From an uncultured Anaerolineaceae bacterium (lineage in GTDB: Bacteria > Chloroflexota > Anaerolineae > Anaerolineales > E44-bin32), in assembly GCA_964492745.1 (NCBI GenBank), contig CAZBLT010000004.1:28668-92667 (forward strand): a DNA stretch of 64,000 bases, written 5' to 3'. The stretch's first letter is position 1. Each line of letters begins with the position of its first letter. Below are positions 5,289 through 57,668 of the stretch, one piece after another. The notes beneath the pieces were generated by a model. That model was not told where the DNA came from. It searched no databases and was given only the letters and a program-made list of their open reading frames with translations. Position numbers and translations under genes: made by a program.

Positions 5289-5316
5289 TTGACACGAATT
5301 GGCCGCTTGGTATGAT
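5289..5316 (+). promoter_or_regulatory. Candidate sigma70-type promoter (TTGACA-N16-TATGAT) for the 5323 gene
   Basis: TTGACA lies at 5289-5294 and TATGAT at 5311-5316. The ATG at 5323 sits 7 nt after the -10 box, so the mRNA may be leaderless. Confidence 0.4.
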
Positions 5317-5322
5317 GCCCCC

Positions 5323-9088: not shown

Positions 9089-9153
9089 GGTGGAGAGTCT
9101 AAGCCAGGGGTGTGGCCAGGGCAATCCCCAGGGCCGAACCTGCAAACGAAGGG

Positions 9154-18263: not shown

Positions 18264-19478
18264 ATGATGACTTTCCTGGCAGTCGAACCCTCCTCGAATC
18301 TTCTCCCGCTGTTATTGCTTCTTGCAATCCTGCTCGTGGCTGCCAAGCTCTTGGGGGCCTTGTCCGTGCGGCTGGGCCAGCCGGCGGTGCTGGGAGAGTT
18401 GCTCGCAGGGTTGCTTCTGGGCCCTAGCCTCATCGATGTGCTGACGCTGCCGGTCTTGCGTTCGCCGGGACTCTCGGAATCGCTGCGGGCTTTCGCGGAT
18501 ATCGGAGTGCTTTGCCTGATGTTCGCGGCCGGACTGGAGACCGAACTAGACGACCTGCGCCGCGCCGGTCGGCCGGCTTTGCTGGGGGGAATCCTGGGCG
18601 TGGCGGCCCCGATCCTCTTGGGCGGGGCTGCAGGCTGGGCATTCGGGCAGGCTCCAGAGCAGGCGCTCTTCCTGGGGATCGTGCTCAGCGCTACCAGCGT
18701 GAGCATCTCGGCACAGACGCTGTTGGAACTCGGACGTCTGCGCTCACGCGAAGGGGTGGCCCTGCTGGGTGCGGCCGTTATCGATGACATCCTGGTCATC
18801 ATGATCCTCTCTGGTTTCGTCGTGGCTGTTGACCGATCAGGGTCATTTGGGCTGGTCCTGCTTCAGTTGGGCCGAATGTTCTTGGTCCTGGCGGTCTCGT
18901 TTGGTGCGGCAATCTACCTGCTGCCTTATGTGATCGGATGGACCTCGCGTTTGCGAGTTAGCGAGGGCATGTTGGCGATTTCGCTGGCGCTCATGCTACT
19001 CTTTGCCTGGGCGTCGGAGCATCTCGGAAGCGTGGCGGCCATCACGGGCGCCTTCATTACAGGCTTGGGCATGCGGCGCAGCCGACATCGGGAGGAGCTC
19101 GAAGAAGGTCTGCATCGGATCAGCTATGGCTTTTTCGTGCCCCTATTCTTGGTCAACATCGGATTGGGGGCGGACGTGGGGGCCTTGGCGCCGCGAGAGG
19201 CGATCTTCGCGCTCATCATCATCGCTGTGGCGGTGCTTTCGAAGATGATTGGAAGCGGGTTGGGGGCCTGGTTGGGCGGATTCGATCGGGACGCGGCGTT
19301 GCGTATGGGGCTGGGGATGATCTCTCGGGGAGAGGTGGGCCTGATCGTGGCCGGGATCGGCCTGGCTGAAGGCTTGATCTCCAGAGAACTGTTCGCGGGG
19401 ATTGTGCTCATGGTCCTAGCTACGACGCTTCTGACCCCGATCCTGCTCCGGCGGGCCTACGCTCATCTGGAGGTTTGA
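18264..19478 (+). CDS. Cation:proton antiporter, CPA2 family (NapA/KefB-like membrane domain, no RCK domain)
   Basis: 404 aa with about 12 TM helices. LGQPAVLGELLAGLLLGPS...FAAGLETELDDL...ISRGEVGLIVA is typical of the Na_H_Exchanger/CPA2 family. Confidence 0.85.
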   Translation: MMTFLAVEPSSNLLPLLLLLAILLVAAKLLGALSVRLGQPAVLGELLAGLLLGPSLIDVLTLPVLRSPGLSESLRAFADIGVLCLMFAAGLETELDDLRRAGRPALLGGILGVAAPILLGGAAGWAFGQAPEQALFLGIVLSATSVSISAQTLLELGRLRSREGVALLGAAVIDDILVIMILSGFVVAVDRSGSFGLVLLQLGRMFLVLAVSFGAAIYLLPYVIGWTSRLRVSEGMLAISLALMLLFAWASEHLGSVAAITGAFITGLGMRRSRHREELEEGLHRISYGFFVPLFLVNIGLGADVGALAPREAIFALIIIAVAVLSKMIGSGLGAWLGGFDRDAALRMGLGMISRGEVGLIVAGIGLAEGLISRELFAGIVLMVLATTLLTPILLRRAYAHLEV

Positions 19479-19887: not shown

Positions 19888-21774
19888 ATGAGTGAGTTGC
19901 TCCAAGCAGAATCCCTGATACTGGAACTCTTTCTAATCGTGGCCCTTGTCGCTATCGTGGTCCGCAGGTTCCAGTTCCCGTACACGGTCGCTCTGGTGCT
20001 CGCCGGCCTGGCGCTTTCTTTCCGGTCCGGTCTAGAGATCGAACTCACCTCCGAGCTGATCCTATTCCTGCTGCTGCCACCGCTGATATTCGAGGCTGCC
20101 TTCCATCTAAATCTGCGGCAACTGCGGGACAATCTGGCCACGATCGGCCTGCTGGCCATCCCGGGGGTGATCCTCAACATGCTAGTGGTGGGGGGCATCC
20201 TGTCCTACGGTGCCGGCCTGTCGCTGGCAGTTGCGCTGGTCTTTGGCGCGCTGATCGCGGCGACGGATCCGGTCTCGGTCATCGCAATCTTTCGCAGGCT
20301 TGGTGCACCCAAGCGGCTCGAGGTGCTGCTCGAGGCAGAAAGCCTGTTCAACGATGGCACGGCGGTGGTGATCTTCGGCCTGGCGCTCGAAGTGTTGCAG
20401 CTGGGCAAGTTCAACTTCAGCGAAGCGCTGGTGGAATTCGTACGAACAGCCGGCGGGGGCCTGATCGTGGGAATTGTGCTGGGATGGCTGGTTTCATGGC
20501 TGATCGGCCGCATCGATGATCACCTGATCGAGACCATGCTCACCACCGTCCTGGCCTTTGGATCTTATCTCGTGGCCGAGCAGTTCCATTTCAGCGGGGT
20601 GTTGGCGGTGGTGGCCGCCGGGCTGATGAGCGGCAATATGGGCGAGCGGGCGATGTCGCCCACAACCCGCATCGCGCTTGTGAACCTCTGGGAATATTTC
20701 GCCTTTCTGGCGAATTCGGCGGTCTTCCTCATGATCGGGCTGGATGTCGAGGTGATCTCGCTGGTTTCAAAATGGCGGCTGGTTCTTTGGGCCATCGGCG
20801 CAGTGCTCGTGAGCCGGGCTTTGAGCATCTATGGCCTCGCCCGGCTGGGAAATCCGATCCCTGGCAGATGGCGCCACGTGCTCTTTTGGGGAGGGTTGCG
20901 GGGCGCGATCGCGCTCGCTTTGGCCCTGAGCCTGCCGAACGATTTCGGCCCGGACCGTCGCACACTGATCGAAATGACCTATGGGGTGGTGCTCTTCAGT
21001 CTCGTTGTGCAAGGGCTCTCGATGAACGGCCTCCTGAACCGCTTGGGGATAACCGAGAAGTCCGAGGAGCAAATAGAGTATGAGCGCCGGCACGCGCGCG
21101 CAATGGCCGTCCGCGCCGGCGTGGAGCACATCCGCCGCCTAAGCGAGGAGGGCCTGATCTCGGCCCACAGCTGGCGCCGCATCGAGCCCATGCTGCAGCA
21201 AAGGGTCGAGGGCCTGATTGGCGCCGTTCAGGAGGTGTTGCACGAATCGCCCTACCTGGAGGTCGAGGAGATGGTCGCCGCTCGGCGGGAGATGCTCCGG
21301 GCGCAACGGAGCATGCTCAGCAATATGCGGACCAGCGGCGCCCTCTCCCAAGAGATTTACGAGGAATTGGTTGCGGAGGTTGATACCGCCCTCAGAAGTG
21401 ATGAGGAGGCCTGGGCGCCTTATGCTCGGCAGACGGGCGAGGGGGAGGACATTTGTCATCTCCTGATGGCCGTTGTCCAGGCCCGCGATCTCGAATCGGC
21501 CTCGAATGCCCTCGCCATTCGGGGGGTGCGGGTGACTCGCATCGAGAGCCGAGGGGGCTTCTTGCGCACGCGCAATCACGTGTTGCTGATGGGCATCCCC
21601 CGCGGCCGGTTGCCGGCGACGCTTGAGGCGCTCGAAAGCTCCTGCCGGCAGCGGGTGGAATACCTGCCGCTCCCTGCGGGCGAAGAGGGAAAGGAGGCGC
21701 TGGAGGCGCGCGGCGTGGAGCTCAACGCGGCCGTGACCTTCGCCTTCGACGTGGAACGTTGTGAGGTGATCTGA
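19888..21774 (+). CDS. Na+(K+)/H+ antiporter, CPA1/NhaP type, with a C-terminal DarA/PstA (DUF970)-like domain
   Basis: 628 aa. The membrane domain (ATDPVSV, ESLFNDG, GGLRGAIALALA) is NhaP-like. A helical cytoplasmic linker follows, then a roughly 105-aa C-terminal domain paralogous to the next gene. Confidence 0.85.
   Translation: MSELLQAESLILELFLIVALVAIVVRRFQFPYTVALVLAGLALSFRSGLEIELTSELILFLLLPPLIFEAAFHLNLRQLRDNLATIGLLAIPGVILNMLVVGGILSYGAGLSLAVALVFGALIAATDPVSVIAIFRRLGAPKRLEVLLEAESLFNDGTAVVIFGLALEVLQLGKFNFSEALVEFVRTAGGGLIVGIVLGWLVSWLIGRIDDHLIETMLTTVLAFGSYLVAEQFHFSGVLAVVAAGLMSGNMGERAMSPTTRIALVNLWEYFAFLANSAVFLMIGLDVEVISLVSKWRLVLWAIGAVLVSRALSIYGLARLGNPIPGRWRHVLFWGGLRGAIALALALSLPNDFGPDRRTLIEMTYGVVLFSLVVQGLSMNGLLNRLGITEKSEEQIEYERRHARAMAVRAGVEHIRRLSEEGLISAHSWRRIEPMLQQRVEGLIGAVQEVLHESPYLEVEEMVAARREMLRAQRSMLSNMRTSGALSQEIYEELVAEVDTALRSDEEAWAPYARQTGEGEDICHLLMAVVQARDLESASNALAIRGVRVTRIESRGGFLRTRNHVLLMGIPRGRLPATLEALESSCRQRVEYLPLPAGEEGKEALEARGVELNAAVTFAFDVERCEVI
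21457..21771 (+). other. DarA/PstA (DUF970)-like PII-superfamily domain fused to the CPA1 antiporter
   Basis: HLLMAVVQARDLESASNALAIRGVRVTRIESRGGFLRTRNHVLLMGI...AVTFAFDVERCEVI aligns with KLLLTIIRAKDTEAVMDHLVENDFRVTHIASTGGFLRKGNSTLLIGT...ATVFVLNVDQFSAL of the downstream gene. Confidence 0.7.
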
Positions 21775-34574: not shown

Positions 34575-34647
34575 GGGCCTGTGGCGCAGTTGGGAGCGCG
34601 CATCAATCGCACTGATGAGGTCGCGGGTTCGAATCCCGCCAGGTCCA
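34575..34647 (+). tRNA. tRNA-Ala (anticodon CGC)
   Basis: Manual cloverleaf: acceptor GGGCCTG/CAGGTCC with the G3:U70 Ala identity pair, D-arm GCGC-AGTTGGGA-GCGC, anticodon arm CATCA-ATCGCAC-TGATG and T-arm GCGGG-TTCGAAT-CCCGC. The discriminator is A and no CCA is encoded. Confidence 0.9.
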
Positions 34648-34656
34648 CTCGAGCAA

Positions 34657-34732
34657 GGGCCCATGGCGCAGCTGGGAGCGCGTCTCAATGGCATTGAGAA
34701 GGTCGTGGGTTCGAATCCCACTGGGTCCACCA
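34657..34732 (+). tRNA. tRNA-Ala (anticodon GGC), CCA encoded
   Basis: Acceptor GGGCCCA/TGGGTCC with G3:U70, anticodon arm TCTCA-ATGGCAT-TGAGA and T-arm GTGGG-TTCGAAT-CCCAC, followed by ACCA. Confidence 0.9.
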
Positions 34733-45351: not shown

Positions 45352-46635
45352 TTAATCGAGGCGCGAGGCCAGCAAGGGAACCAACATCTCGTCTGGAGAG
45401 AGCCCACCGTGGCGCCCAAGCAGCGGGTTTTCTTTCTGTGCCCACCACAGATAGGCTTCTCCGTGGCTGACCAGGATCATCTCCCCGAGGCGGTCTGCGG
45501 CAACGGCTGCCGGTTCGCCAGGGCCGAAGAGGCCCTGTTCCAGCGCGCTTGGAGCCTGCAAGGGGGTGAAGGCTCCCGGCCAAGCCTGGTTGAGATAGGC
45601 GCGAATGTCACCGGCGCGCTGGGGTTTGGGATAGAGATAGGCCAGGCGGTTCTCGCCGGTGGGGTACATATAGAGCAGTCTCAGGAAATCCGGATGATTG
45701 CGAAGCTCCATGTGGGCATTCAGGGGGGTGGCCACCTGACCATGATCCGAGAGCAGGAGCAACACCGTTTCCCTGGCGACGATGGCGGGCAGCTGATCCA
45801 GGCATTCGTGCACCATGGCCTGGGCAAAGGCTGCGAAGGCCACTTCGGCCTGCTCCGAATCAGGGCCGTGCCGGTGCGAGAGCCCATCCACGCCACCGTA
45901 ATAGACCCAGACCAGGCGCGGCCTAGCGATAGGGGTGGCCAGAAGATGGCGCACGCCCACCCACAAATCGGGGACTCCGGCGAATGTGTGAAGGCTCACG
46001 TCGGCGTAATGCATGCGGGAAAGCCCCGAGCCGCTGATGCTGTAGTGGAGAAAGCCATGCGTCTCGATCCCGGCGGCCCGAAACCGCGGCCCCAGGGTCG
46101 GGACCGGCAGAAACCGCTCGGGGTCGAATCCGGCCGTGTAGAGCAGGCCGGCGCGGCCGTCGAAGACCGCCGGCGCATGCGTGATCATGTTGGTGATGAT
46201 CCCCCATTCCTTGAGGAAGATCTCATAGCCGAGCACGCCGTGCTCCGCAGGGCTCCGTCCGGTCCAGAAGCTGGTGAGCGCGGCGCTGGTTGTGGAAGGG
46301 ACCACGGAGGTCAGGGCCGCCAGATGGCCATGGCTGAGCAAGGGGTTCAAGCTTGCTGCGCGGCCATCTATCCAGCGCTGAAATCGGCGCAGGCCCACAG
46401 CATCGACGAGGACGACGAGGACCTGCCTGGCGCCTTCCACGAGATCGTCTAGGACGGGCAAATCGAGGGGGCTGTGCGCGAGAGGTTCGGCGCCCAGCCA
46501 GCGGCATAGGCTGGCGGGAACGTTGAGCAGTGAGAGCCCATGATATGCAGGGCGAATGCTGTCTGCTCCTAGATCCAAGGAATCCGGGGGCTGGGCCTGA
46601 ATGCGCTGCAGGCATTCGGCGGTGAGATCGGCCAT
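45352..46635 (-). CDS. Nucleotide pyrophosphatase/phosphodiesterase-type alkaline-phosphatase-superfamily enzyme
   Basis: VLVDAVG..., the VPSTTSAALTSFWTG nucleophile motif (compare the NPP motif PTxTxPNHxxxxTG), the GVDGLSHRHG and LSDHGQ metal-ligand motifs. Confidence 0.7.
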   Translation of the reverse strand: MADLTAECLQRIQAQPPDSLDLGADSIRPAYHGLSLLNVPASLCRWLGAEPLAHSPLDLPVLDDLVEGARQVLVVLVDAVGLRRFQRWIDGRAASLNPLLSHGHLAALTSVVPSTTSAALTSFWTGRSPAEHGVLGYEIFLKEWGIITNMITHAPAVFDGRAGLLYTAGFDPERFLPVPTLGPRFRAAGIETHGFLHYSISGSGLSRMHYADVSLHTFAGVPDLWVGVRHLLATPIARPRLVWVYYGGVDGLSHRHGPDSEQAEVAFAAFAQAMVHECLDQLPAIVARETVLLLLSDHGQVATPLNAHMELRNHPDFLRLLYMYPTGENRLAYLYPKPQRAGDIRAYLNQAWPGAFTPLQAPSALEQGLFGPGEPAAVAADRLGEMILVSHGEAYLWWAQKENPLLGRHGGLSPDEMLVPLLASRLD

Positions 46636-46671
46636 GGGTCTTTTATCCTTCTTCTGGATGACAAGTGTTCA

Positions 46672-46701
46672 TTGGTGCCTCGCGAGGTGCTGGCCTATAA
46701 T
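46672..46701 (+). promoter_or_regulatory. Candidate promoter (TTGGTG-N18-TATAAT) for the ABC transporter operon
   Basis: TTGGTG at 46672-77 and TATAAT at 46696-701. The first permease starts at TTG 46745, after GGAGGAGG. Confidence 0.45.
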
Positions 46702-46744
46702 TTTACCCGACATCCCCGGTGGGCCCTGAGATGGAGGAGGATCC

Positions 46745-48454
46745 TTGCAGTTTGCAGCCCCTAAGGGGGGAAGAAAGCCTTTAGGGTCACTCGCCGAACG
46801 CGGGTTTCGCGCCCTGCGGAGTCGGCGCGGCCGCCGCCTCCGGGAATACCTCACCGCCTACTTGATGATCCTCCCGGCGACGCTGCTGATCTTCGTCTTC
46901 GGGATTTTCCCTGTTGGATTCGCTCTCTTCGTAAGTCTGCATAAGTGGCGTCTTAAGCGCGGTGGCTACATCGGGCTGGAAAATTATGTGCGCGCTGTGG
47001 ACAACCTGGTTTATGTGGCGCTCTTCCTTCTGGCCGTCGGCGCCCTCGTTGCAGCCACCCTCTGGCTGCGTTCCTGGCGGCGCGAGGCCCGCGATGCCGG
47101 ATTGCGTCCCTGGGTCTTGCTCCTGCCCGGAGGGTTGCACGCCGCCGCGGCCGTGGCCTTTGTCCGCTGGACGGTTCTCCTACTGCCTGAGATCCTGGAT
47201 ATCGCCGACAAGATCATCGGGGTGGAGAGAACCCGGGCGCTGTTCATGCGCTTGTTAGGCGAAGCCCTGCGAGCCCCGACTGTGTGGGAAGCCTTCGGGC
47301 ACCTGGGCTTGCTCCTGATGCTCAGTCTCCTGAGCGCGGTTCTCTTCGCGCGCCTCTGGCGCCGGCCGGAGAACATCCTCTATCAGATCCGCTTTGCGCT
47401 GGCGTGGCTGGCATTGGGCATGGGGGCATTCCTGCTCCGGTTTACCTACACCGAGGTGGCGAAGGCCTATCAAGCGGCACTCGAAGGAGGCCAATCGCCC
47501 GCGATTTGGTCTCAAATCGTTACGATCACGAGCGGCGTGATCCTGCTGGGTCTGGCGTGGGTAGTCTGGCGGGGTGCGGAGCGCCAGGAGACGGACCGGG
47601 CCTTCTGGTTGCGCATCTTCGCGGCGATCGCCTTGCTGGTGGGCGGCTGGCTGCTCATCGGGGAGATCCCGGTCATCGTCGCCGCGGGCGACGATGATCT
47701 CTGGTCGGGGTTGAAGGTAACTATCTTCTACTCCCTGGGAACGGTGCCATTCCAGTTGGCGATCTCGCTATTCCTGGCGGTGCTGCTCTTCCAGCAATTG
47801 GCTGGATCCGAGCTCTTTCGCATGCTCTATTTCTTGCCCTACGTCACGCCCTTCGTCGCAAGCGCGGCGGTCTTCAGGCAGATGTTCTCAATCCGGCCAC
47901 AAGCGCCTGTGAACCAGTTTCTGCATTTCCTGGGGCTTGAGCCGCTGCGATGGACCCAGGAACCGCGGGGGATCTTCCATCTTCTGGGGGAACGGGCGGG
48001 ACTGGCGATCCCCGAGTGGGCTGGCGGCCCCAGCCTGGCGCTGGTCGTCATCATGCTGTATTCCATTTGGGTCTATGTGGGCTATGACACGGTCATCTAT
48101 CTTGCCGGCCTGGGCAACATCCCCAAGGAAGTAGTCGAAGTGGCACAAATCGATGGCGCCGGTCGCTGGCAGGTCTTCCGGCATGTCATATTCCCACTGC
48201 TTTCTCCCACCACCTACTTTCTCTCGCTGATTGCCATCATCGGCACTTTCAAGGCTTTCAGTCACATCTGGGTCATGCGGCATGAGCTGGCGCTGGGCAC
48301 GACGGATACCTTCTCCGTCACCATCTTCCTGGAATTCTTCGATAAGGTGCGCTATGGTTATGCTTCGGCGCTGGCCTTTGTGCTTTTCGCCATCATCCTG
48401 GGCCTGACGGTGTTAAACAACCGCATCCAGGGATCGAGGGTCTTCTATGGCTGA
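46745..48454 (+). CDS. Carbohydrate ABC transporter permease (MalF-like, enlarged N-terminal membrane region)
   Basis: 569 aa. The EAA-loop region is [25 protein letters not shown] start with a strong RBS. Confidence 0.8.
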
Positions 48455-49325
48455 GCGGCCCACGTATGCCCCGAATTCCGAGAGTCTTGCTTGGGGCAAG
48501 TCACTGCAGCATCTCGGCACCTATTTCGTCTTGATCACCGGGGCGATCATCGCAGTAATACCTTTCATATGGATGCTCTCCACTTCGGTGATGTCCCTGG
48601 GGGAGGCCCAGGGTGTGCGCTTCTTCCCCTCGCAGATCCACCTCGAGAATTACGCTGCCGCGTGGAAGGAGGCGCAATTTGCCGAGTACTTCTTGAACAG
48701 CCTGCAGATCACGTTCATCACCCTCGCCGGGCAACTCACCTTCAGCGTGCTGGCGGCCTACGCCTTCGCCCGCATCGAGTTTCCCGGGCGGGATGCTATC
48801 TTCGGTGTGCTGCTCAGCACGATGATGATCCCGGCCATGGTTCTGATCATTCCCAACTTCCTGACCGTCACCTGGCTTGGGAGAATTGGGCCGATCAAGT
48901 GGATCAACAACTGGCCGGCGCTTACGGTGCCTTTCATGGGAAGCGTGTTCTCGATCTTCCTGCTGCGGCAATTCTTCGCACAGGTGCCAGATGAGCTCTT
49001 CGATGCGGCGCAGATTGATGGCGCGGGCCACCTGCGATTCCTGATCTCCGTCGTGCTGCCACTCGCACGGGCACCCCTGATGGTGATCCTCGTGCTCTCG
49101 TTCATGGGCTCCTGGAATGCCCTCGCCTGGCCGCTGCTCGTGACCAATTCACCCGAGTGGAGGCCGATCGCAGTGGGGCTGCTGAATTTCGTTGAAGAGG
49201 CTGGGCAGCAACTACATCTGATGATGGCGGGGGCGGTGATCACGATCATTCCCGTCCTTATCCTTTACTTCATCACGCAGCGGCAGTTTACGGAGTCGAT
49301 TGCCCGGAGCGGCCTGAAAGGCTGA
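48447..49325 (+). CDS. Carbohydrate ABC transporter permease (MalG-like)
   Basis: 292 aa. The EAA loop is [22 protein letters not shown]. Overlaps the previous gene by 8 nt. Confidence 0.85.
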
Positions 49326-49414
49326 CCCGGCAGGGGAGGGAGGTGGCAGCGATAGGGATCTGCGCAGTTCTCATCGAAGAACGAGATTCAATATCGATTG
49401 TGAGGAGGAAAAAG

Positions 49415-50824
49415 ATGTCCAAGAGAGGATTCGCCTGGTTGCTCATTCTGGCCTTGCTGGTGCCGATGGCGCTTGCGGCCTGCGGGGCCCCCACCGCGGA
49501 ACCGCAGCCGGCAGAACCAGCCCAGACCGAGGCCCCGCCCGAACCAGAGCCCACCGAGGCTGAGGAGCCAGAATCAGCCGCGCCGGCGGTTGACCCCAGC
49601 GGGCAGACCGTGGTCTTCTGGCATGTCTGGGGGACCGGCACGGTTGGCGAGGGCATGCAGGCACTGGTGGAGGAGTTCAACGCCACCAATGAGTGGGGGA
49701 TCACGGTCGAGGCAGTGGACCAGGGGCGCTATCGCGATGCCGAGGACGCCATGAACGCCGCCATCCAGTCCGGCGATCTTCCCAACATTATCGTGGGCTA
49801 TACCAACGCTCTCGATACCTGGTATTCGGTGGGCGTGCTGGCGGATATCAACACCTACATCCAGGATCCCGACTGGGGGCTCTCGGAGGAGGAGATCGCC
49901 GACTTCTATGAGGGCGCCTGGATGAACGGCATCAACGCCGAGGGGGCGCGGGTGGGCTTCCCGCATGGGCAGTCGGCCAATGTGCTCTTCTACAACCACA
50001 CATGGGCCCAGGAGCTTGGATTCGACGGCCCGCCGACTACGCCTGAGGAGTTCAAGGCCCAAGCCTGCGCAGCTGCTCAGGCCAACGCCAGCGACGAGGA
50101 TCCCGATAACGATGGAACCGGCGGGCTGGTGCTTTACACCGGCGCCTCAAATGTCGCTTCCTGGGTCTTCGCCTGGGGCGATGACCTCTATAACGAGGAC
50201 GGCACCGGCTACGATTTCACCAAGCCCGCGGTGGAGGAAGTGGCGTACTTCCTGAAGGAACTCTGGGATGAGGGCTGTGCCTTCGCGACCGAAAGCTACC
50301 CCAACCCCGAATTCGCCACCCGCAAGGCGCTCTTCACCATGAGCTCCACGGCCGGCCTGCCCTATCAGGTTTCGGCCTTCGAGGCCGAGGATGCCACGGA
50401 TGACGAGTGGGGCTTCATCCCCTTCCCGGGGCCGGGCGGCAACCTGGCCGTGAACTCCTTCGCCCAAAACTCGGCCATTGTGAAGTCCAACCCCGAGCAG
50501 GAGCTGGCCTCCTGGCTCTTCATTAAGTGGTTCACAAGCCCTGAGACGATGGCGAAGTGGATCGAGGCCAGCGCCTACCATCCCACTCGCCTGAGTACGG
50601 TGGACTTCCTCGGAGACTACATCGCCGCAAACCCGCTCTGGGCCGAGGGCCTCGAACTGGTCCCGCTTGGCAAAGCGGAGCCCGGCTGGTCGTCCTGGGG
50701 CACCGTCCGCAGGGAGGTGCAGGATACCTTTGCGGCCATCCTGCAGAGCGACCCCTCGGAGATTCCGGCGCTGCTGGCAGAGCTGGACGCTGCGGCCGCC
50801 GAGGCCCTGGAAGAGACTTCCTAG
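49415..50824 (+). CDS. ABC transporter extracellular sugar-binding lipoprotein
   Basis: MSKRGFAWLLILALLVPMALAACG (lipobox) followed by a Pro/Glu/Ala-rich linker and an SBP_bac_1-like body. The ATG at 49415 follows GAGGAGG. Confidence 0.85.
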   Translation: MSKRGFAWLLILALLVPMALAACGAPTAEPQPAEPAQTEAPPEPEPTEAEEPESAAPAVDPSGQTVVFWHVWGTGTVGEGMQALVEEFNATNEWGITVEAVDQGRYRDAEDAMNAAIQSGDLPNIIVGYTNALDTWYSVGVLADINTYIQDPDWGLSEEEIADFYEGAWMNGINAEGARVGFPHGQSANVLFYNHTWAQELGFDGPPTTPEEFKAQACAAAQANASDEDPDNDGTGGLVLYTGASNVASWVFAWGDDLYNEDGTGYDFTKPAVEEVAYFLKELWDEGCAFATESYPNPEFATRKALFTMSSTAGLPYQVSAFEAEDATDDEWGFIPFPGPGGNLAVNSFAQNSAIVKSNPEQELASWLFIKWFTSPETMAKWIEASAYHPTRLSTVDFLGDYIAANPLWAEGLELVPLGKAEPGWSSWGTVRREVQDTFAAILQSDPSEIPALLAELDAAAAEALEETS

Positions 50825-50857
50825 GCCTATCTGGTGGGCGAAGCAGTTGGCATTGCG

Positions 50858-50886
50858 GGGGCTGCCCAATCCGGGCAGCCCCTTTA
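50858..50886 (+). terminator. Rho-independent terminator after the ABC operon
   Basis: GGGGCTGCCC-AATCC-GGGCAGCCCC forms a perfect 10-bp stem, followed by TTTAAAT. Confidence 0.75.
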
Positions 50887-51013
50887 AATGCCCGATCCCC
50901 GGAAAGGGTTCTGGGAGAATGGGAGTCCTTGTCTCCCTGGCGATAGAGCCCGTTTGCCAGCCTCAGGCTTCGGACTACAATCCATCAAGCCGGATGGATC
51001 GGGCGGGAAGGGG

Positions 51014-51361
51014 ATGGGAGCGATGGGAGAGCAAGATCGATGGCGCAAGCTTCGCGACCGCCAGATTGAGTTGCGTGACCCCCAGAAGAAGGAGCGCAAG
51101 CTGCAGAGGAGCATCGCGCACAAACGCCGGAGCCGCCGCGAATGGTTTTCCATGCGGGGGATCTTCGCCGATGTCCCCAAGGTGATCACCGGTGCGCTGA
51201 TTGGCCTGGCGCTCGGAGTGGCGCTCCTTCTGGTGCTGCCCTACCTTATACAGGCATCATGGGTCAATCTCGCCGGCATAGCGGGCCTGGTCATCTTCAG
51301 CTTCTTCGGGATGGCCTTCGGACAGGCCATCGACGGCCGGGATCGGCTGCGGGATATCTAG
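51014..51361 (+). CDS. Small hypothetical membrane protein (basic N-terminus, two TM helices)
   Basis: MGAMGEQDRWRKLRDRQIELRDPQKKERK...VITGALIGLALGVALLLVL...IAGLVIFSFFGMAFG. The start is uncertain (51014 or 51023). Confidence 0.4.
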   Translation: MGAMGEQDRWRKLRDRQIELRDPQKKERKLQRSIAHKRRSRREWFSMRGIFADVPKVITGALIGLALGVALLLVLPYLIQASWVNLAGIAGLVIFSFFGMAFGQAIDGRDRLRDI

Positions 51362-51387
51362 ACGCACTTTGCTCGAGTAGAGAGCTA

Positions 51388-51414
51388 AGGTATCGGTCGA
51401 GGCGACCGATACCT
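51388..51414. terminator. Perfect 12-bp hairpin between convergent genes (possible bidirectional terminator)
   Basis: AGGTATCGGTCG-AGG-CGACCGATACCT. Its 3' arm abuts the stop codon of the nuclease gene. There is no clear U-tract. Confidence 0.5.
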
Positions 51415-54400
51415 CAGTCCGCAAGCATGAATTCGGCGATCAAGGGATCATGATCAGATTTGCGCAGCGCGGTCGTGTCATCCGGCGAAGGCAGACCATA
51501 ATCCGCATCCAAGTGCAGTACGGTCGCATCCACGAGCTGGTCGAAGAGCCCAGGTGTTACCAGAATGTGGTCGAGCGCTTGCGAAACGCCCCGATAAACA
51601 TATGTATACCGGTCCTCAGGGGCCAGGCGTTCGAAGACATGCCGTAGCCCGGCATCCCGCAACACCTCCAGAGGCCCAGAGTCATAGAAAGAGTTGAGAT
51701 CGCCCAGCACGATCACATGCGCGTGATCGTCCTTGCTCAGAATGCGCTCCAAGATCTCCACATTCCAGGCAGCCTGCTCAATCCGGCGTGGTTCGGTCGC
51801 CTCTTCTCCGCCCGACATCGAAGTGAAGTGATTGTTGAGCAGGTAGAGGGTGGTTTTGCCTTGTGTGGTTTGAACCCGGACCCGGATCATCAGCGGCGGT
51901 CGGCTGGTCAGCCCCTCGGGCGCCGGGAAGGCTCGCGCCTCCAGGATTTGGGCCCGATCACCGCGAACGAGATAGCCCACATCGATTCCCCGGCCATCGG
52001 TCCCCTCAATCAGGATAGGCTGATAGTCATACGGCAGGAGGCCGGGAAGCGCGGCGAGATCCTCGAGGATGCCGATGTGCTCCACCTCCTGCAATCCCAC
52101 CAGTGTGGGGGCGCCAGCGGCGAGGATCGTGTCGGCCACCTTGGAAAGATCGCGCTCGTATTCGGACTTGCGGGGCAAGGGAGGCGAGGCTGGATGAGGG
52201 GCCAGGATATCGAACAGGTTCTCCACATTCCAGGTCATCACCCGGAATACATCCGGGGGCTCTGCCTTTAGCCAGGGTAGCGAGATTGGGGCCTTCTCGA
52301 CCCTGGGGGCTTCCAGCGTTTCGATCTTGTAGCTGCCATAGGTATAGGCCAATGGCCCCATCAGGTCGGTCATCTGGTCGCCGTTGGATAGAGAATAGGG
52401 AAGAGTTGATTGGTCTTCGTGAGCTTCGGAGGAGCCATCATCGACAGTGATGAGCAGACCCGTGTCCCCACCGCGCCAGAAGCGTGTGCGACCATGTTTG
52501 GCGAGAGTGACAACGGTCTCGCCAAAACGATTGGTGGGGCCTACGACAACCGCGCGGTCGTAGACGCCGACGAGCATGCCTTCCAGCGTTTCATAATAGG
52601 CAGCCGAGGATTCGGGTGATGCCGGCGGATCGAGCGGGACGGGTGTCGGCGTGGCGGCCGCGACTTCCAGGATGTGAACATCGGCCACGGAGGCGGGGTG
52701 CAGTTCAGTCTGGGAGGAGATTTCCCGCACTTGCCCCCGCACTTCCACAGCCTGCCCGGGTGATAGATCCTCTGGCACAGGATCGAGGGCGACGAATAGC
52801 CCTTCTGACGTCGCCGGGTTGCCATCGGATTCGAGGCTCTGGATCCAGAAGCCGCCGAGATCGGGAAAGACCCCAGTTATGACTCCGCGGGTTGTGAGCG
52901 GCTTCAACCGGTATGGAGAGCGCTCGCCAGGCCCCTGGATGGCAGAGATAGGGACCGTGGCGCCGATATGTGTGGGGGTGGCCGGCTCGACTTGATAATC
53001 GACGTCTTGCTTCAAGCGCAGGCCGAAATCACTCAGGGATGCGGTGGAGGCGCCGGGCGAGGGCTGGAGGCGCAGGTGCACTTCGGCTGCTGAGCCGCCA
53101 GGCTCCAGAGCCGCGATTTGCCAGCGTATCTCCCCCATCGAAGTAATGCCCCCATCCAACACCTGCAGAATTCGAGATCCCGCCGGTTGAGCATCGACCC
53201 AGATCTCCAGGTCGTGCACCGGAGAATCTGTGTAGTTGATCGCCCGAAGGGTCAGGTCGAAGGGTGTACCTGGCAAGACGTTGGTGGGAGCGTCCACTTC
53301 AAGGATCACAGCCGCGGGGTGGATCTCCCGCAGGTCGGCCGCCTGGCGGGGGTAGAGCTGGATCAGGCCATCCCTGACCTCCAGGATCCCGGAGGCCTGA
53401 TAGGCACGTCCTTCTTCGAATGGCTCAACGCTGATGCCTGTCTTCTTGTCGATGTAGAGCGTGAGTATCGCACCGGTTTCATCGGCCAGATCCATCTCGT
53501 AGCTGTAGCTGAATTCCTCGATGCGGGTAGCCGTGCCCTGGACGGTCACCAGCCTTCCAGGCAGGTTTTCCATGTCGGTAGCGGCTTGCCCGAGCGGCAC
53601 TGAGAGGGGTACAGGCGGTTCACCCTCTTGCAAGAGCTCCACATCCTCGGGAGAGCCGGGGATAAGCTCGGCCGCGCCGCGGTAAAGATCCATCAGGCCG
53701 CGGACACGAATCTTGTCGCCGATGGAGACGGCCAGTTCCCCTTCGCCGGACGGCACCCATACTTGAACGCCCCCGCTCGGGTCCTCCACGTAGAATTTCA
53801 CATTTCCAGAGCCGGCGAAGTAGCCGCCCGTGTACATTGTGGCTGTGCCCTCGACGGTTACTTCCGAGCCCACCAGCGAGCGCGCAATCGACACCGGGAT
53901 TGCACCTTCGCGGATTTCGATCCAGAGAGTCTCGGAAAATGCGTAGGAAGTCGGCGGTTCGAGGACCGCCATGATGTTCCGGATGGGGGCCTGCAGGTAG
54001 GTCCATGGGGCAACCAGAGCCACCTGCCGGGTAAGCACGCCGCCTGGCTCGAGAGCTCCGGGTGTCCACACTGCTCGGCCCTCGCTCAGGGTCAGCCTCT
54101 CCTGGAGGGGGCGAAGCTCCACACCCTCTGGGAGGTCAAAGGATACCGATGACACTGAGAGAGGATCGTCCGCCAGGTTCTCGAGCAGGAGAGTCAGATG
54201 GAAGGTCTCGCCGGGTTTGGGTTGCGCCTCGATGGTGGCCTTAAGGCGCAGGGGCGTGGATACGCTCGCGGTGGCGACGTTCTGCGGATCCGGCGTATTG
54301 ACCAACAGGAAATCCTGGGCGTGATTGGGTGGCTCGAGTTTCCCCAGAGCCTCCTGGCGGCGCTGAAGAGAGCAGCCAGCCTCGATGGCTGGCGCAGGTT

Positions 54401-54887
54401 CACCCTGCCGGTAGGCCTCAGGCGCTTTGCCCCAGGCGAGGCGGTCTTGAGTTTGATTCTGCGGGTTGCGCAGAAGCAAACCGCCCCCTGATGTATTCAG
54501 GCTCTGCTCGAAGCGTGCGTCGGGTGTTCGCCCAATCTCTTCCCCAGATCGGACAAGCAGGTAGAAGCCCCGGGGAGGGATCAACGCCGGACGGGTCCAT
54601 TCATAGACGGGCAGGTCCTCTTCACTCGTGGCCAGCCGGTACCAGAGCGACCATCCCTGCAAATCGATCGGTTGATCGGATGGGTTATGAAGCTCGATGA
54701 ATTCGAAATTGTTGTTCCCGGGCGTACCCGCCATCACCTCGCTGATTATCGGGGAGGAGGGGGCAAATCCAGGAGCGGGCGTGCTGGGGCCAGTTGCTGG
54801 GACGCACGACACCAAGACGACGAGCGCGAGGGCAACGGGAAGGGCATGATGGGTTCGATGCATGTTGCTAGTCCTTTGAACAATCAT
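51414..54887 (-). CDS. ExeM/NucH-family extracellular nuclease (lamin-tail domain ... endonuclease/exonuclease/phosphatase domain), lipoprotein
   Basis: Signal peptide/lipobox ALALVVLVSC and an LTD (ISEVMAGTPGNNNFEFIELHNPSDQPIDLQGWSL). The C-terminal EEP domain carries VMTWNVENLFD...GDLNSF...SDHDP. An alternative start lies at 54863. Confidence 0.8.
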   Translation of the reverse strand: MIVQRTSNMHRTHHALPVALALVVLVSCVPATGPSTPAPGFAPSSPIISEVMAGTPGNNNFEFIELHNPSDQPIDLQGWSLWYRLATSEEDLPVYEWTRPALIPPRGFYLLVRSGEEIGRTPDARFEQSLNTSGGGLLLRNPQNQTQDRLAWGKAPEAYRQGEPAPAIEAGCSLQRRQEALGKLEPPNHAQDFLLVNTPDPQNVATASVSTPLRLKATIEAQPKPGETFHLTLLLENLADDPLSVSSVSFDLPEGVELRPLQERLTLSEGRAVWTPGALEPGGVLTRQVALVAPWTYLQAPIRNIMAVLEPPTSYAFSETLWIEIREGAIPVSIARSLVGSEVTVEGTATMYTGGYFAGSGNVKFYVEDPSGGVQVWVPSGEGELAVSIGDKIRVRGLMDLYRGAAELIPGSPEDVELLQEGEPPVPLSVPLGQAATDMENLPGRLVTVQGTATRIEEFSYSYEMDLADETGAILTLYIDKKTGISVEPFEEGRAYQASGILEVRDGLIQLYPRQAADLREIHPAAVILEVDAPTNVLPGTPFDLTLRAINYTDSPVHDLEIWVDAQPAGSRILQVLDGGITSMGEIRWQIAALEPGGSAAEVHLRLQPSPGASTASLSDFGLRLKQDVDYQVEPATPTHIGATVPISAIQGPGERSPYRLKPLTTRGVITGVFPDLGGFWIQSLESDGNPATSEGLFVALDPVPEDLSPGQAVEVRGQVREISSQTELHPASVADVHILEVAAATPTPVPLDPPASPESSAAYYETLEGMLVGVYDRAVVVGPTNRFGETVVTLAKHGRTRFWRGGDTGLLITVDDGSSEAHEDQSTLPYSLSNGDQMTDLMGPLAYTYGSYKIETLEAPRVEKAPISLPWLKAEPPDVFRVMTWNVENLFDILAPHPASPPLPRKSEYERDLSKVADTILAAGAPTLVGLQEVEHIGILEDLAALPGLLPYDYQPILIEGTDGRGIDVGYLVRGDRAQILEARAFPAPEGLTSRPPLMIRVRVQTTQGKTTLYLLNNHFTSMSGGEEATEPRRIEQAAWNVEILERILSKDDHAHVIVLGDLNSFYDSGPLEVLRDAGLRHVFERLAPEDRYTYVYRGVSQALDHILVTPGLFDQLVDATVLHLDADYGLPSPDDTTALRKSDHDPLIAEFMLAD

Positions 54888-55780
54888 GATGGGGGCGGAG
54901 ATCCTCTACGACTCTTGCGCAGGATCTCCCGGAAGCGCGGGCGCAGCGCAGCAATAATAGGGGAGGGCTGCGGGGGCTGCCAGCCGCGGGTAGCCTCCTC
55001 CACAGGCTCCGGCCAGGTTTCCGGGCTGTGCACGATAGTCCCGGGCTCTTCAGCCTGCTCAAGCAATCCGAGGGCCTGGCTGAGCACTCGCAGATGCATC
55101 TCGGCATCCCTCGGCTGGCCGAGCGGATGGCCGAAGGGAAATTCTACGCCCAGCGTGCGGGGAGTGCCTATGCGTTCGGCCCAGTAGGGCATCATGGAGA
55201 TGACAACGGTAGCCAGTCCAGCAGCTTCGAGCGTGCGTGCCAACACGGGCACGTTGATGGCGCAGTCTGGTCAAGCCGGAGTGAGAATCACGCAATCCAC
55301 CCCAGCATGCACGAAACGGTCGGCCACCTCCGGGCCATAGGTCTTCTCCCAGGCCGTGGTATCTGGGGGGAAGCCCTGAAAGCCCATGAAGGAGAAATGT
55401 TCCGGGGCCACGGCCCCGATGACGCCGCCCTCGGCCAATCTATTCAGAGGTTCGATGGGCAACAGAATGTTGAAATCAGCCTCGGCGTCACGTGCGTTGT
55501 AATGCAAGTGGCCCACCCCCAAATCAGCCGGGTGGACATTGGTCGGGATAGGCCGGTATGTCGGGTCTCCCCAAGTGGGCTGCTGTTTCTCGCGCTCGAG
55601 GTCAAACGGGGGCTGAGAATCACGCAGGTAAAGGCCTCCGGAGGTGACCAATCCGATGGTGCACTCGGACAGCGGGCGGGGAAGCGGTGTCCAGGGGATG
55701 GGGAGTCGCCGCTCGACATCGGCCATTCGATAGTAAGTGGCGATTATGCGGGGCAGGAACTTGAAGCTATCAACCGTCAT
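54884..55780 (-). CDS. GrdB-family (glycine/sarcosine/betaine reductase selenoprotein B-like) selenoprotein candidate; in-frame TGA at 55273..55271
   Basis: Track ORFs 55271..55870 and 54884..55252 are in frame. The joined reading is ...HAGVDCVILTPA-U-PDC-AINVPVLARTLEAAGL.... IGLVTSGGL, LPIEPLNRLAEGGVIG and GVD.VILT..U..C match the Sec region of clostridial GrdB as I recall it. The start is trimmed to the ATG at 55780 (AGGAG RBS). Confidence 0.75.
55236..55253 (-). promoter_or_regulatory. Candidate SECIS hairpin for the GrdB-like gene
   Basis: The mRNA reads CGUGCC-CGUGUU-GGCACG, a 6-bp stem starting 17 nt after the UGA. The loop contains GU. Confidence 0.5.
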
Positions 55781-55820
55781 CGGCACTCCTGAGTTGTTGC
55801 AGGTCAAGGAACCCTGTGTG

Positions 55821-56588
55821 CTAGGCGCTGGACACCCGGCCCAGCGCCTTGCAGGTGAGCCCGGGATCATCGCTCAGCACCGCATCGCATCCCAGGAAAC
55901 GATAATACCAGAGGCGGGGTTCGGGGGTGGGGTCGAGCGGGCAGAGCAGCTGCCCGAGCGCGTGAGCCCACAGCACGTAGAGTGGGTTGGCAAGCAGCAG
56001 GGGCCAGAAGGGCCCGACCATCTCGAAACCTCGCGCCGGCCAGGGGTGGGAGGCGGTGATCCATCCGGTCGGCAGTTCGGGAGCTGCTTTACGGACCGCC
56101 GCCAGCCGTGCGCGGCTGAAGGAAAGGACGACAGTGCGATCGATCAGATCGTGATGGTCGAGCAGGTCCCGCAGGCGGTGATTGACCTTCGGTTCGAGGA
56201 AGCGGTCGCTCTTCAGTTCGAGCGCCAAGGCGCGGTCGGGCGGGACCAAGGCTGCTAATTCGTCAAGGGTGGGGATAGGTTCGGGTCCACGATCCGGACG
56301 TCCCGCCGCGGCGTCCAGCCGTTTGAGCTCCGAGAGGGTCATTTCGGCCACGGCGCCCTGGCCGTTCGTGGTCCGGTCCACGGTTGGGTCATGAATGCAG
56401 ATGAAGACTCCATCCCGGGATAGGTGCAGGTCCGTCTCGAGGATGTCAGCGCCGTCCAAAATTGCCTGGCGAAAGGCTGAGAGCGTGTTCTCGGGAAAGG
56501 CAACCCGGTTGCCCCGGTGGGCCATGACATAGGGCTTCTTGCGATCGGGGAGGGCAAGCATTCGGCCGGGGGACTTGGGCGGCTTCAT
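55821..56588 (-). CDS. Glycerophosphodiester phosphodiesterase (GDPD/UgpQ-like)
   Basis: MAHRGNRVAFPENTLSAFRQAI..GADILETDLHLSRDGV.ICIHD.TVDRTTNG is the GDPD signature. Confidence 0.85.
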   Translation of the reverse strand: MKPPKSPGRMLALPDRKKPYVMAHRGNRVAFPENTLSAFRQAILDGADILETDLHLSRDGVFICIHDPTVDRTTNGQGAVAEMTLSELKRLDAAAGRPDRGPEPIPTLDELAALVPPDRALALELKSDRFLEPKVNHRLRDLLDHHDLIDRTVVLSFSRARLAAVRKAAPELPTGWITASHPWPARGFEMVGPFWPLLLANPLYVLWAHALGQLLCPLDPTPEPRLWYYRFLGCDAVLSDDPGLTCKALGRVSSA

Positions 56589-56591
56589 CGA

Positions 56592-57668
56592 TCAGAGTAT
56601 ATCCTCAAGGGAGAGGCCATGGTTCTTGGCGCGCGCCTGCCTCCAAGCCATCAGGTCGGGCGGTGGCGGCGCGATTTCGGCTTCGGGGAGAGGGATGAGC
56701 GCCAGCGCGCCCTCCGGGCAGTGGACGGAACAGACGCCGCAGCCGGTGCAGCGGGCCGCGTCCACGGAGGCGAGGCCTTCGCAGCTTAGGGCGCCAAAGG
56801 GGCAATACCCCACGCATAGCTCACAGCCAACACAGAGATCATCATCCACATGATTGACGTACGAGGAACGGGCCACCACATTCGAGACGCCCATCTCGGC
56901 CAGGCCACGAAGGATCCCACAGGAGCAGGTACAGCAATTGCAGAGATACCAGTGCCCTGTCTGGCTGTTGCTCACCGAATGAACCAACCCGGCCTCGGCG
57001 GCGCGCTCAAGGGTAGCGATGGCCTCTTCGTGGGTAAGGCTGCGGATGGTGGAGCTGCGATCAAAGGCGCCTGGGGTGGCGCTGAAGACCATGCATACAT
57101 CCATCGGATGGTCACAACCCTCGCCGATGAGGGCCTTCTGTTTGCGGCAGATGCAATCGGTCACGCCCCAGGCGCGTGCCTCATCGAGGATCTGCCGCAC
57201 ACTGTCATAGGGCCGGATCTCGCTGTTCATGGCGATGCTCTCGCCCACCGGGACCACACGGTGGACTGGGGGCTGCATGGCGATGGCCTCGTGGAAGGCG
57301 GCCTGGTAGTAGGCCTCGAAAAGCTCGGCGAGCTCGCGGTCGATGCGTCCCGATTGCATCTCATAGATGCCCACCACGAACGGCATCAGCCCATATCCCA
57401 CGCCCTGGTCGGTCTTGCCGGCGGCAATCAGGCCTTTCCTGGCCATTTGCTTCAGCATCTGACGCAGAGCCTGAGGGTCGCGCTCCAGGCGCTCTGCGAT
57501 CTGCTCCGGGGTTTCAAGCGTGAGGCGGAGATGGGCAGCGAGTTCAGCTTCTGGCTCGAGAAATAGATAGCGCAGCAGGCGCAATTCATGGCCTTCAGCC
57601 GTGCGAGGGAAGCCATCAGGAAGTGCATTGAGCCGGGAAGCCAGCTGTTCATGGGGGTCCGGAGCCAT
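56592..57668 (-). CDS. 4Fe-4S dicluster domain protein with an N-terminal winged-helix-like region and an additional Cys-rich (CNCCxCxC) cluster
   Basis: Two CxxCxxCxxxCP ferredoxin motifs (CVGCELCVGYCP, CTGCGVCSVHCP) plus the CICRK...C...C and YLCNCCTCSCG motifs. The stop lies 3 nt before the GDPD start. Confidence 0.75.
   Translation of the reverse strand: MAPDPHEQLASRLNALPDGFPRTAEGHELRLLRYLFLEPEAELAAHLRLTLETPEQIAERLERDPQALRQMLKQMARKGLIAAGKTDQGVGYGLMPFVVGIYEMQSGRIDRELAELFEAYYQAAFHEAIAMQPPVHRVVPVGESIAMNSEIRPYDSVRQILDEARAWGVTDCICRKQKALIGEGCDHPMDVCMVFSATPGAFDRSSTIRSLTHEEAIATLERAAEAGLVHSVSNSQTGHWYLCNCCTCSCGILRGLAEMGVSNVVARSSYVNHVDDDLCVGCELCVGYCPFGALSCEGLASVDAARCTGCGVCSVHCPEGALALIPLPEAEIAPPPPDLMAWRQARAKNHGLSLEDIL

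Follow-up and report, generated by a model that had tools for sequence, protein, structure and literature searches.

The stretch examined here, 64,000 nucleotides (nt) of DNA from an uncultured Anaerolineaceae bacterium (contig CAZBLT010000004.1; hereafter the window, in whose positions all coordinates are given), carries on its minus strand two annotated open reading frames (ORFs), 55271..55870 and 54884..55252, the second of which was assigned a GTG start. Translation places both in the same frame with the TGA 55273..55271 between them, in agreement with an initial annotation of this DNA. The question raised by the locus is whether that TGA, which would be codon 170 of a joined frame, ends a gene or is read as selenocysteine (Sec), and to which family and chemistry the resulting protein would belong. 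We consider it very likely that UGA-170 is decoded as Sec, that the product is one 298-residue PrdB paralog, that a hairpin behind the codon is its selenocysteine insertion sequence (SECIS), and that the clade of this protein is without PrdA/GrdE or GrdA partners.

One gene across an in-frame TGA

Positions 55780..54884 of the minus strand form a single gene with the TGA inside its frame. The complete coding sequence (CDS) of this PrdB-like selenoprotein (54884..55780, minus strand) comprises 298 codons and the stop TGA 54886..54884, and supersedes the two annotated ORFs. Its start is the ATG at 55780, which we take to be the real one because a Shine-Dalgarno-like AGGAG, read from the sequence, stands 5 nt 5' of it (55786..55790, minus strand) and because the homologs all begin with a common M[TP]VDSFKF. 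The in-frame TGA (55271..55273, minus strand), conserved in orthologs and aligned to Cys in CPxC homologs, gives the 298-residue product its U at 170, followed by C at 173, and the U-P-D-C redox motif (U170, P171, D172, C173) occupies 55262..55273 of the same strand. The residues around the TGA read GVDCVILTPA-U-PDC-AINVPVLARTLE, the UxxC junction being as initially described, and the predicted junction peptide of the selenoprotein is FVHAGVDCVILTPA-U-PDCAINVPVLAR.

Three genome scans yielded about 170 related loci (labelled L001 and onward). The TGA was found at the homologous codon in all 24 loci of the first scan set that reach the site, in 91 of the 93 loci of the enlarged set (the exceptions being one Cys form and one frameshifted locus), and in 76 of 77 loci of more distant relatives belonging to at least 10 phyla. 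Neither TAA nor TAG ever occurred at the Sec codon among those loci. The TGA was always followed by P-x-C and then by a conserved frame of about 120-130 codons, which answers an early doubt that the orthologs might truly be two genes. Across 82 full-length orthologs, U170, P171 and C173 never vary. Cys is aligned to U170 as CPDC in the homologs P0038 and P0042, and of 60 full-length representatives taken from the wider family, most have C-P-x-C at the Sec column; when the Cys form was searched against 1.84 billion cluster representatives, 895 clusters were matched at E<=1e-3, and 247 at the stricter E<=1e-10. A protein search gave 645 matches, most of them exactly 168-169 residues long with the same end position and few of them full-length, and a search with the C-terminal half gave 304 separate "hypothetical proteins" of 114-133 residues. 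The window locus and hundreds of others in public databases are split in this manner into a 169-residue "GRDB" protein and a "hypothetical protein" of about 120 residues; merging the two halves of the window gene gives 298 residues.

Could the TGA be a real stop, leaving either two genes (a 169-residue GRDB-domain protein and a 122-residue protein starting from GTG) or one gene killed by a nonsense mutation? Automatic annotation everywhere gives the 169-residue and ~120-residue entries, TGA is an ordinary stop in the window, including the stop of the selenoprotein gene itself, and Sec machinery is not seen in the window. However, a nonsense mutation is not expected to recur at one codon in about 165 loci from more than 10 phyla, and a true stop would vary between TGA, TAA and TAG, whereas only TGA was found. 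Also, conservation of the downstream frame begins directly at the TGA, P171 and C173 are invariant although they lie upstream of any possible restart, full-length Cys homologs exist, and selenoprotein-B profiles cross the junction. We therefore hold a real stop to be very improbable.

A reassignment of TGA to Trp or Gly (codes 4 or 25) was considered too. It might be suggested by several database proteins with W or G at the Sec column, and by P0003 (L097 771-1553), in which the gene caller translated the codon as W. This W is nonetheless a TGA in the DNA and thus a gene-caller artefact; moreover, TGA terminates the selenoprotein gene and its neighbours in the window, homologs with a sense codon have Cys and not Trp or Gly, and a conserved hairpin follows the codon. 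The chance of reassignment is, in our estimation, negligible, and we retain Sec as the residue specified by codon 170.

Some variants at the Sec column were recorded besides. Certain full-length database entries appear to stem from a TGA called as Trp or Gly, which the DNA demonstrates for P0003; W or G also stands at this column in P0310, P0333, P0247, P0293, P0306 and P0358. A subfamily (L099 6001-6867, P0005; also P0025) has a genuine GAC (Asp) there, within a motif D-A-N-C-C, the nucleophile being swapped for a non-redox residue, and an Abhydrolase_3 gene lies upstream at both loci. Finally, the full-length protein P0002 (286 residues, 56% identical) is without about 12 residues spanning VDCVxLTPxUP, so that the Sec codon is gone. 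Two D-C (GAYTGC) repeats seem to flank the deletion, and P0002 may be either a Sec-less variant occurring in nature or an artefact of assembly.

A SECIS-type hairpin inside the coding sequence

A SECIS-type hairpin with a 6-bp stem CGUGCC/GGCACG and a loop CGUGUU was found at 55253..55236 (minus strand), inside the CDS; it begins 17 nt after the UGA, where the initial annotation had placed it, and its loop begins 23 nt past the UGA. All six stem pairs are formed in 83 of 89 orthologs, and the loop reads CGUG(C/U)U in 85 of 89. In an alignment of 19 sequences, 93.9% of cells were paired, compared with 17-57% when the 3' partner was slid, and one stem pair showed a U-A / U-G / C-G series.

The codons under the hairpin are constrained well beyond the peptide that they encode. 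Normalised synonymous-codon entropy over 82 orthologs, with a gene mean of 0.80, was 0.25, 0.05, 0.00, 0.00, 0.35 and 0.52 at codons 176-181 (N-V-P-V-L-A), and no 7-codon stretch of the gene is lower than 176-182, which is exactly the hairpin. Val is written GTG in 71 of 72 and in 80 of 80 sequences at the two hairpin codons, against about 50% elsewhere, and Pro is written CCC in 79 of 79. The Cys form L027 serves as a control: it encodes the same NVPVLAR peptide by GTC, GTC and CTT, which breaks 2 of the 6 pairs. Distant clades have a second hairpin type, (A)CCAGUCC-GUN-GGRCUGG(U), whose start lies 10 nt behind the UGA and in which 94% of cells are paired, versus 16-55% when slid. Since the suppression of synonymous sites, the Cys-form control and the existence of two hairpin types point the same way, we build the case for a SECIS on these and not on covariation; the synonymous-codon suppression is the strongest evidence for it. 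The bSECISearch model of Zhang and Gladyshev from 2005 reportedly expects the apical loop at a distance of 16-37 nt from the UGA and a G in one of its first two positions. Both hairpin types presumably agree with this geometry, having the loop 18-23 nt after the UGA and a G in the first two loop bases. In one case, two diverged paralogs of a single metagenome-assembled genome (MAG) carry the two hairpin types.

Family placement and the search for partners

The Pfam family GRDB (PF07355) matched residues 28-167 with an E-value of 2.4e-8 and 34.1 bits, above its gathering score of 22. This match, which includes the upstream segments earlier thought to fit GRDB, stops at profile position 345 of 347, just before the Sec; the Pfam model cannot cross the junction because it ends there. 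The NCBIfam models for PrdB and GrdF/H together span residues 14-253, across the TGA, so that the joined product, when checked on selenoprotein-B models as had been advised, crosses the junction on NCBIfam and not on Pfam GRDB. Against the PrdB model TIGR04483, residues 30-253 gave 147.2 bits (profile positions 20-231 of 238), short of its cut-off of 300. Scores also remained below the cut-offs for TIGR01918 (40.6 bits vs 65.45), TIGR01917 (GrdB, 34.5 vs 602) and the GrdF and GrdH models NF040794 (47.1 vs 800) and NF040795 (44.0 vs 775). As the protein passes none of the Prd/Grd equivalog cut-offs, it is not to be regarded as an equivalog of a characterised reductase subunit. The initial assignment to the GrdB family holds insofar as Pfam GRDB is matched above its gathering score, but the best match is PrdB and not GrdB. 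By its sequence, then, the selenoprotein is a PrdB-like member of the GrdB/PrdB selenoprotein-B superfamily.

Homology to PrdB (TIGR04483; Clostridium sticklandii, Clostridioides difficile) extends across the entire PrdB length. With P0307, a true-PrdB control (453.2 bits on TIGR04483; a Cys form with C-G-T-C), the protein shares 34% identity over 208 residues (E 1e-40). Both have U/C-x-x-C after the same beta-strand, the U-P-D-C of the window protein being aligned to the C-G-T-C of P0307, and PrdB likewise has a hairpin within the CDS after the TGA. The two differ in several respects: HGGFD of PrdB is HLHxN in the window family, which has an ExxxPTWGDP segment in addition; C/U-G-T-C of PrdB is U-P-D-C in the window protein, which is longer by about 30 N-terminal and 45 C-terminal residues; and the window family occurs in Chloroflexota and many non-fermenting lineages. 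GrdB, GrdF and GrdH share the UxxC motif and align through their C-terminal half including the Sec region, the GrdF/GrdH/TIGR01918/GrdB models being matched at profile positions ~205-425 of ~435. The window protein (298 residues) is without the N-terminal ~200 residues of that ~435-residue architecture. It was therefore correct to say that only the C-terminal part of GrdB is covered, whereas the PrdB profile is covered whole.

Does the gene stand alone? No grd, prd or sel gene was found in the 64-kb window, including PF09338, PF04723, grdA, grdE, grdC, grdD and prdA, as the initial annotation had stated for the vicinity of the gene. We surveyed 141 genes immediately flanking 91 related loci, which fell into 111 Pfam families. 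Neither PF09338 (PrdA/GrdE) nor PF04723 (GrdA) was among the 25 commonest of these, so that the recommended check of ortholog neighbourhoods brought no Prd/Grd partner among those 25; the commonest families were GDPD (12), aminotransferase (6) and GH1 (5). No neighbour cluster was shared at 46 loci of distant clades. In the true-PrdB control P0307, by contrast, the gene order is a 601-residue PF09338 gene (prdA), a 149-residue ORF and prdB; prdA and prdH precede prdB there, and neither precedes the window gene. An obligate neighbouring subunit was also considered and rejected, as the search for partner genes gave clade-specific synteny only. With no Grd/Prd partner found and the Grd cut-offs failed, these data support the earlier proposal of a stand-alone reductase of unknown substrate, distinct from glycine reductase.

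Two scans of species-representative genomes located relatives of the gene in 393 and in 383 genome stretches (overlapping sets), for several hundred species genomes in all. One locus, L001, is 97% identical, and orthologs are also carried by the closed genomes CP070708.1 and CP070630.1. Most relatives are from Chloroflexota; others belong to Actinomycetota, Spirochaetota, Desulfobacterota/Thermodesulfobacteriota, Myxococcota, Nitrospinota, Nitrospirota, Gemmatimonadota, Acidobacteriota, Methylomirabilia and Binatia. Two diverged paralogs per MAG were seen in four pairs (L038/L069, L048/L079, L089/L090, L064/L175). Chloroflexota- or Actinomycetota-type copies also appeared in archaeal MAGs (L006 and L108; Methanosarcinales, Methanothrix), probably through mis-binning.

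A family of this description has been catalogued before. A UxxC "proline reductase PrdB" was represented by 42 Sargasso Sea sequences (Zhang, Fomenko & Gladyshev 2005, PMC1088965), and the Global Ocean Sampling (GOS) data gave 235 Sec and 110 Cys forms annotated pfam07355 (Zhang & Gladyshev 2008, PMC2398784); in metagenomes of Sargasso Sea surface water, only two selenoprotein families were more abundant than "PrdB" (PMC1088965, PMC2398784). "Proline reductase" was also listed for Anaeromyxobacter and Geobacter (PMC1794560), and the relatives of the window gene include a Myxococcales locus. The Sargasso/GOS "PrdB" resembles the window family in being pfam07355-related, in its UxxC motif, in being numerous outside Stickland fermenters, and in having been identified by an in-frame TGA, Cys homologs and a SECIS; that both form the same clade is suggested by these descriptions, and not by sequence comparison. 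In those papers, the sequences were filed as proline reductase, and the missing PrdA and the gene neighbourhoods were not discussed. NCBI and JGI labels on truncated relatives likewise read selenoprotein-B family or PrdB.

A further possibility is a canonical subunit of D-proline, glycine, sarcosine or betaine reductase whose partners (PrdA/GrdE, GrdA) are encoded elsewhere in the genome. PrdB is indeed the best-scoring family, JGI names relatives "D-proline reductase (dithiol) PrdB", and our view is limited to 64 kb of the genome. Yet 147 bits were reached where 300 are required, with TIGR01918 and TIGR01917 failing as well, and the motifs are unlike those of PrdB. Moreover, PF09338 and PF04723 are absent from the 25 commonest neighbour families, whereas a true PrdB directly follows prdA. 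"PrdB" is also abundant in Sargasso Sea surface water, where, by our own reasoning, Stickland fermentation is not expected. We judge a canonical subunit to be improbable, and the label "D-proline reductase PrdB" is likely wrong for the window clade, where it would mislead metabolic reconstruction of Chloroflexota. The window gene thus adds a member to a large, already catalogued family of PrdB-like selenoproteins and is no new kind of system; among bacterial selenoprotein families to which no substrate has been assigned, its clade is one of the more widespread.

Several observations have to be set against our view of UGA-170 as a Sec codon in a partner-free PrdB paralog. No tRNA-Sec was detected in the window nor in 60 related loci. 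SelA, SelB and SelD were seen neither in the window nor in the flanks of related loci, about 1.7 Mb in all, the flank search for SelD and SelA having been a tblastn with approximate E. coli sequences as queries. The Sec-decoding trait of this genome is thus assumed, and we infer actual Sec insertion at UGA-170 from comparative sequence evidence. Folding of the 81-nt hairpin region gave z = +0.96, with 174 of 200 shuffles at least as stable; Rfam gave no SECIS family match for the hairpin at gathering and permissive thresholds; and the covariation of both hairpin types is mostly wobble-compatible and weak compared with shuffles. The hairpin is unremarkable when taken alone, and it is the comparison of sequences that is decisive for selection acting on it. 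Also, partners could be encoded in other parts of the genome. Finally, since HLHxN replaces HGGFD and a WGDP segment is added, the chemistry may differ from that of PrdB. The sole tblastn match as SelD was rejected: it is ThiL/HypE-like and scored 72.8 on the SelD model, for a cut-off of 125.

Proposed chemistry and gene neighbourhood

An AlphaFold2 (AF2) model was made of the natural Cys homolog P0038 from a 58-sequence alignment (pLDDT 90.4, pTM 0.91). In this model, C-P-D-C lies between strand E161-165 and helix H171-184. A sequence search of the PDB gave no significant match, and Foldseek of the P0038 model against the PDB returned nothing at E<=1e-3, nor any match to the thioredoxin fold. 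Among the residues invariant in the 82 orthologs are D60, E64, W70-G-D-P73, R76, H91, H93, D102, Q135, R182, E185, R208 and E213; about 20 invariant polar residues are remote from the UxxC motif. Sec151 of PrdB acts on pyruvoyl-bound D-proline by attacking its alpha-carbon, a U151C variant is inactive, and the enzyme is regenerated via PrdC; the literature on PrdB structure is also model-based (PMC11229817).

By analogy with this system, a catalytic cycle can be proposed for the window protein. The hairpin 17 nt downstream, acting as a bacterial SECIS, would direct the decoding of UGA-170 as Sec and give one 298-residue protein. Sec170, in a strand-helix loop, would be the nucleophile, as the analogy with PrdB/GrdB and the anatomy of the model suggest, and the adduct would be resolved to a selenenyl-sulfide by Cys173, which stands in the first helical turn. 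Re-reduction of the selenenyl-sulfide could then come from a dithiol donor; in this lineage, this might be a co-transcribed 2x[4Fe-4S] protein. The cycle is put forward by analogy only, and the electron donor and the substrate class are proposals too. The fluoroacetate reductase FarB/FarE of Cloacibacillus (PMC10838667) illustrates that selenoprotein-B homologs gain other substrates while keeping the Sec nucleophile. FarB, however, keeps a GrdE-type partner and feeds GrdA/GrdCD, whereas none such was found for the window family.

The protein might instead be a general thiol/selenol-disulfide oxidoreductase, either a thioredoxin-like carrier or a selenium-handling protein, which would not cleave a substrate. 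The UxxC of the Cys-homolog model occupies a strand-loop-helix junction like that of thioredoxin-type proteins, a weak Thioredoxin_9 match (E 0.0023) surrounds the motif, the family was filed under thiol-dependent redox selenoproteins (PMC1088965, Table 3), and the neighbour genes are variable. On the other hand, the Thioredoxin_9 match reached 18.2 bits for a cut-off of 25, and the model showed no likeness to the thioredoxin fold in the PDB at E<=1e-3. A length of about 300 residues with many invariant polar residues outside the motif, whole-length homology to a catalytic subunit and several diverged paralogs per genome also argue against a general carrier. We consider it unlikely, though it keeps some weight. 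Because about 20 invariant polar residues lie far from the UxxC and several paralogs occur per genome, we favour a substrate-specific enzyme, as far as conserved residues can suggest one.

The genes around the selenoprotein gene were assigned as well. Upstream, 41 nt from its start, lies a GDPD gene for a glycerophosphodiester phosphodiesterase (55821..56588, minus strand; Pfam GDPD E 6.3e-32, and NCBIfam). Further upstream, 56592..57668 (minus strand) encodes a 358-residue protein with a C-terminal 2x[4Fe-4S] ferredoxin domain (residues 270-325; Pfam Fer4 families and NCBIfam), whose PDB matches concern the ferredoxin domain only and whose N-terminal ~260 residues had no Pfam or NCBIfam match. 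Downstream, 51414..54887 (minus strand) encodes an ExeM/NucH-type extracellular endonuclease (LTD + Exo_endo_phos). The start of this ORF overlaps the selenoprotein stop (ATGA), and the real start is likely ATG 54863, yielding a lipoprotein-type signal peptide. No terminator-like site was seen between the four genes, whose junctions are short or overlapping, and these minus-strand genes form an apparent operon.

GDPD lies within about 5 kb upstream in 21 of 91 loci and is adjacent and on the same strand in 13 of the mapped loci (about 8 clusters at 70% identity); in the clade L014-L021, it is on the opposite strand, about 0.85 kb upstream. The gene of the 358-residue 2x[4Fe-4S] protein is syntenic in 14 of 91 loci, upstream of GDPD and the selenoprotein, and that of the endonuclease in 16 of 91. 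The complete order FeS-GDPD-selenoprotein-nuclease is found in about 8 clusters at 70% identity, the most distant of which share 52% identity with the window protein. As the GDPD association is lineage-limited, we treat it as a lead and not as a finding. An autonomous selenoenzyme with its own chemistry, as opposed to a subunit of proline or glycine reductase, forming in the window lineage a module with the 2x[4Fe-4S] donor and GDPD, is a speculative picture to which we give little credence; if true, it would tie a reduction dependent on selenium to the degradation of head groups of glycerophosphodiesters or of other scavenged organophosphate. The four-gene order, conserved in one Anaerolineales lineage, could serve as an entry point for experimental work.

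In two loci (L013 5176-5925 and L026 9215-9988), a calcineurin-like metallophosphoesterase (Metallophos) stands directly upstream in the place of GDPD. The window section 45352-56588 holds many genes for phosphodiester cleavage or uptake and looks like a phosphate- or nucleotide-scavenging neighbourhood; besides the endonuclease and GDPD genes, it includes a type I phosphodiesterase/NPP (45352-46635, minus strand) and two ABC permeases with an SBP_bac_8 binding protein (46745-50824, plus strand).

The remainder of the window, which is GC-rich, holds a few further features. Two tandem tRNA-Ala genes, with anticodons CGC and GGC, lie 8 nt apart at 34575-34732 (plus strand). A Na+/H+ exchanger fused to a C-terminal cyclic-di-AMP receptor domain is encoded at 19888-21774 (plus strand), and a second Na+/H+ exchanger gene (18264-19478) adjoins it. 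Two long ORFs, 9112-11418 (plus strand, 768 residues) and 5299-6600 (plus strand, 433 residues), had no Pfam match at E<=1e-5 and are candidate genes only; the latter overlaps minus-strand ORFs.

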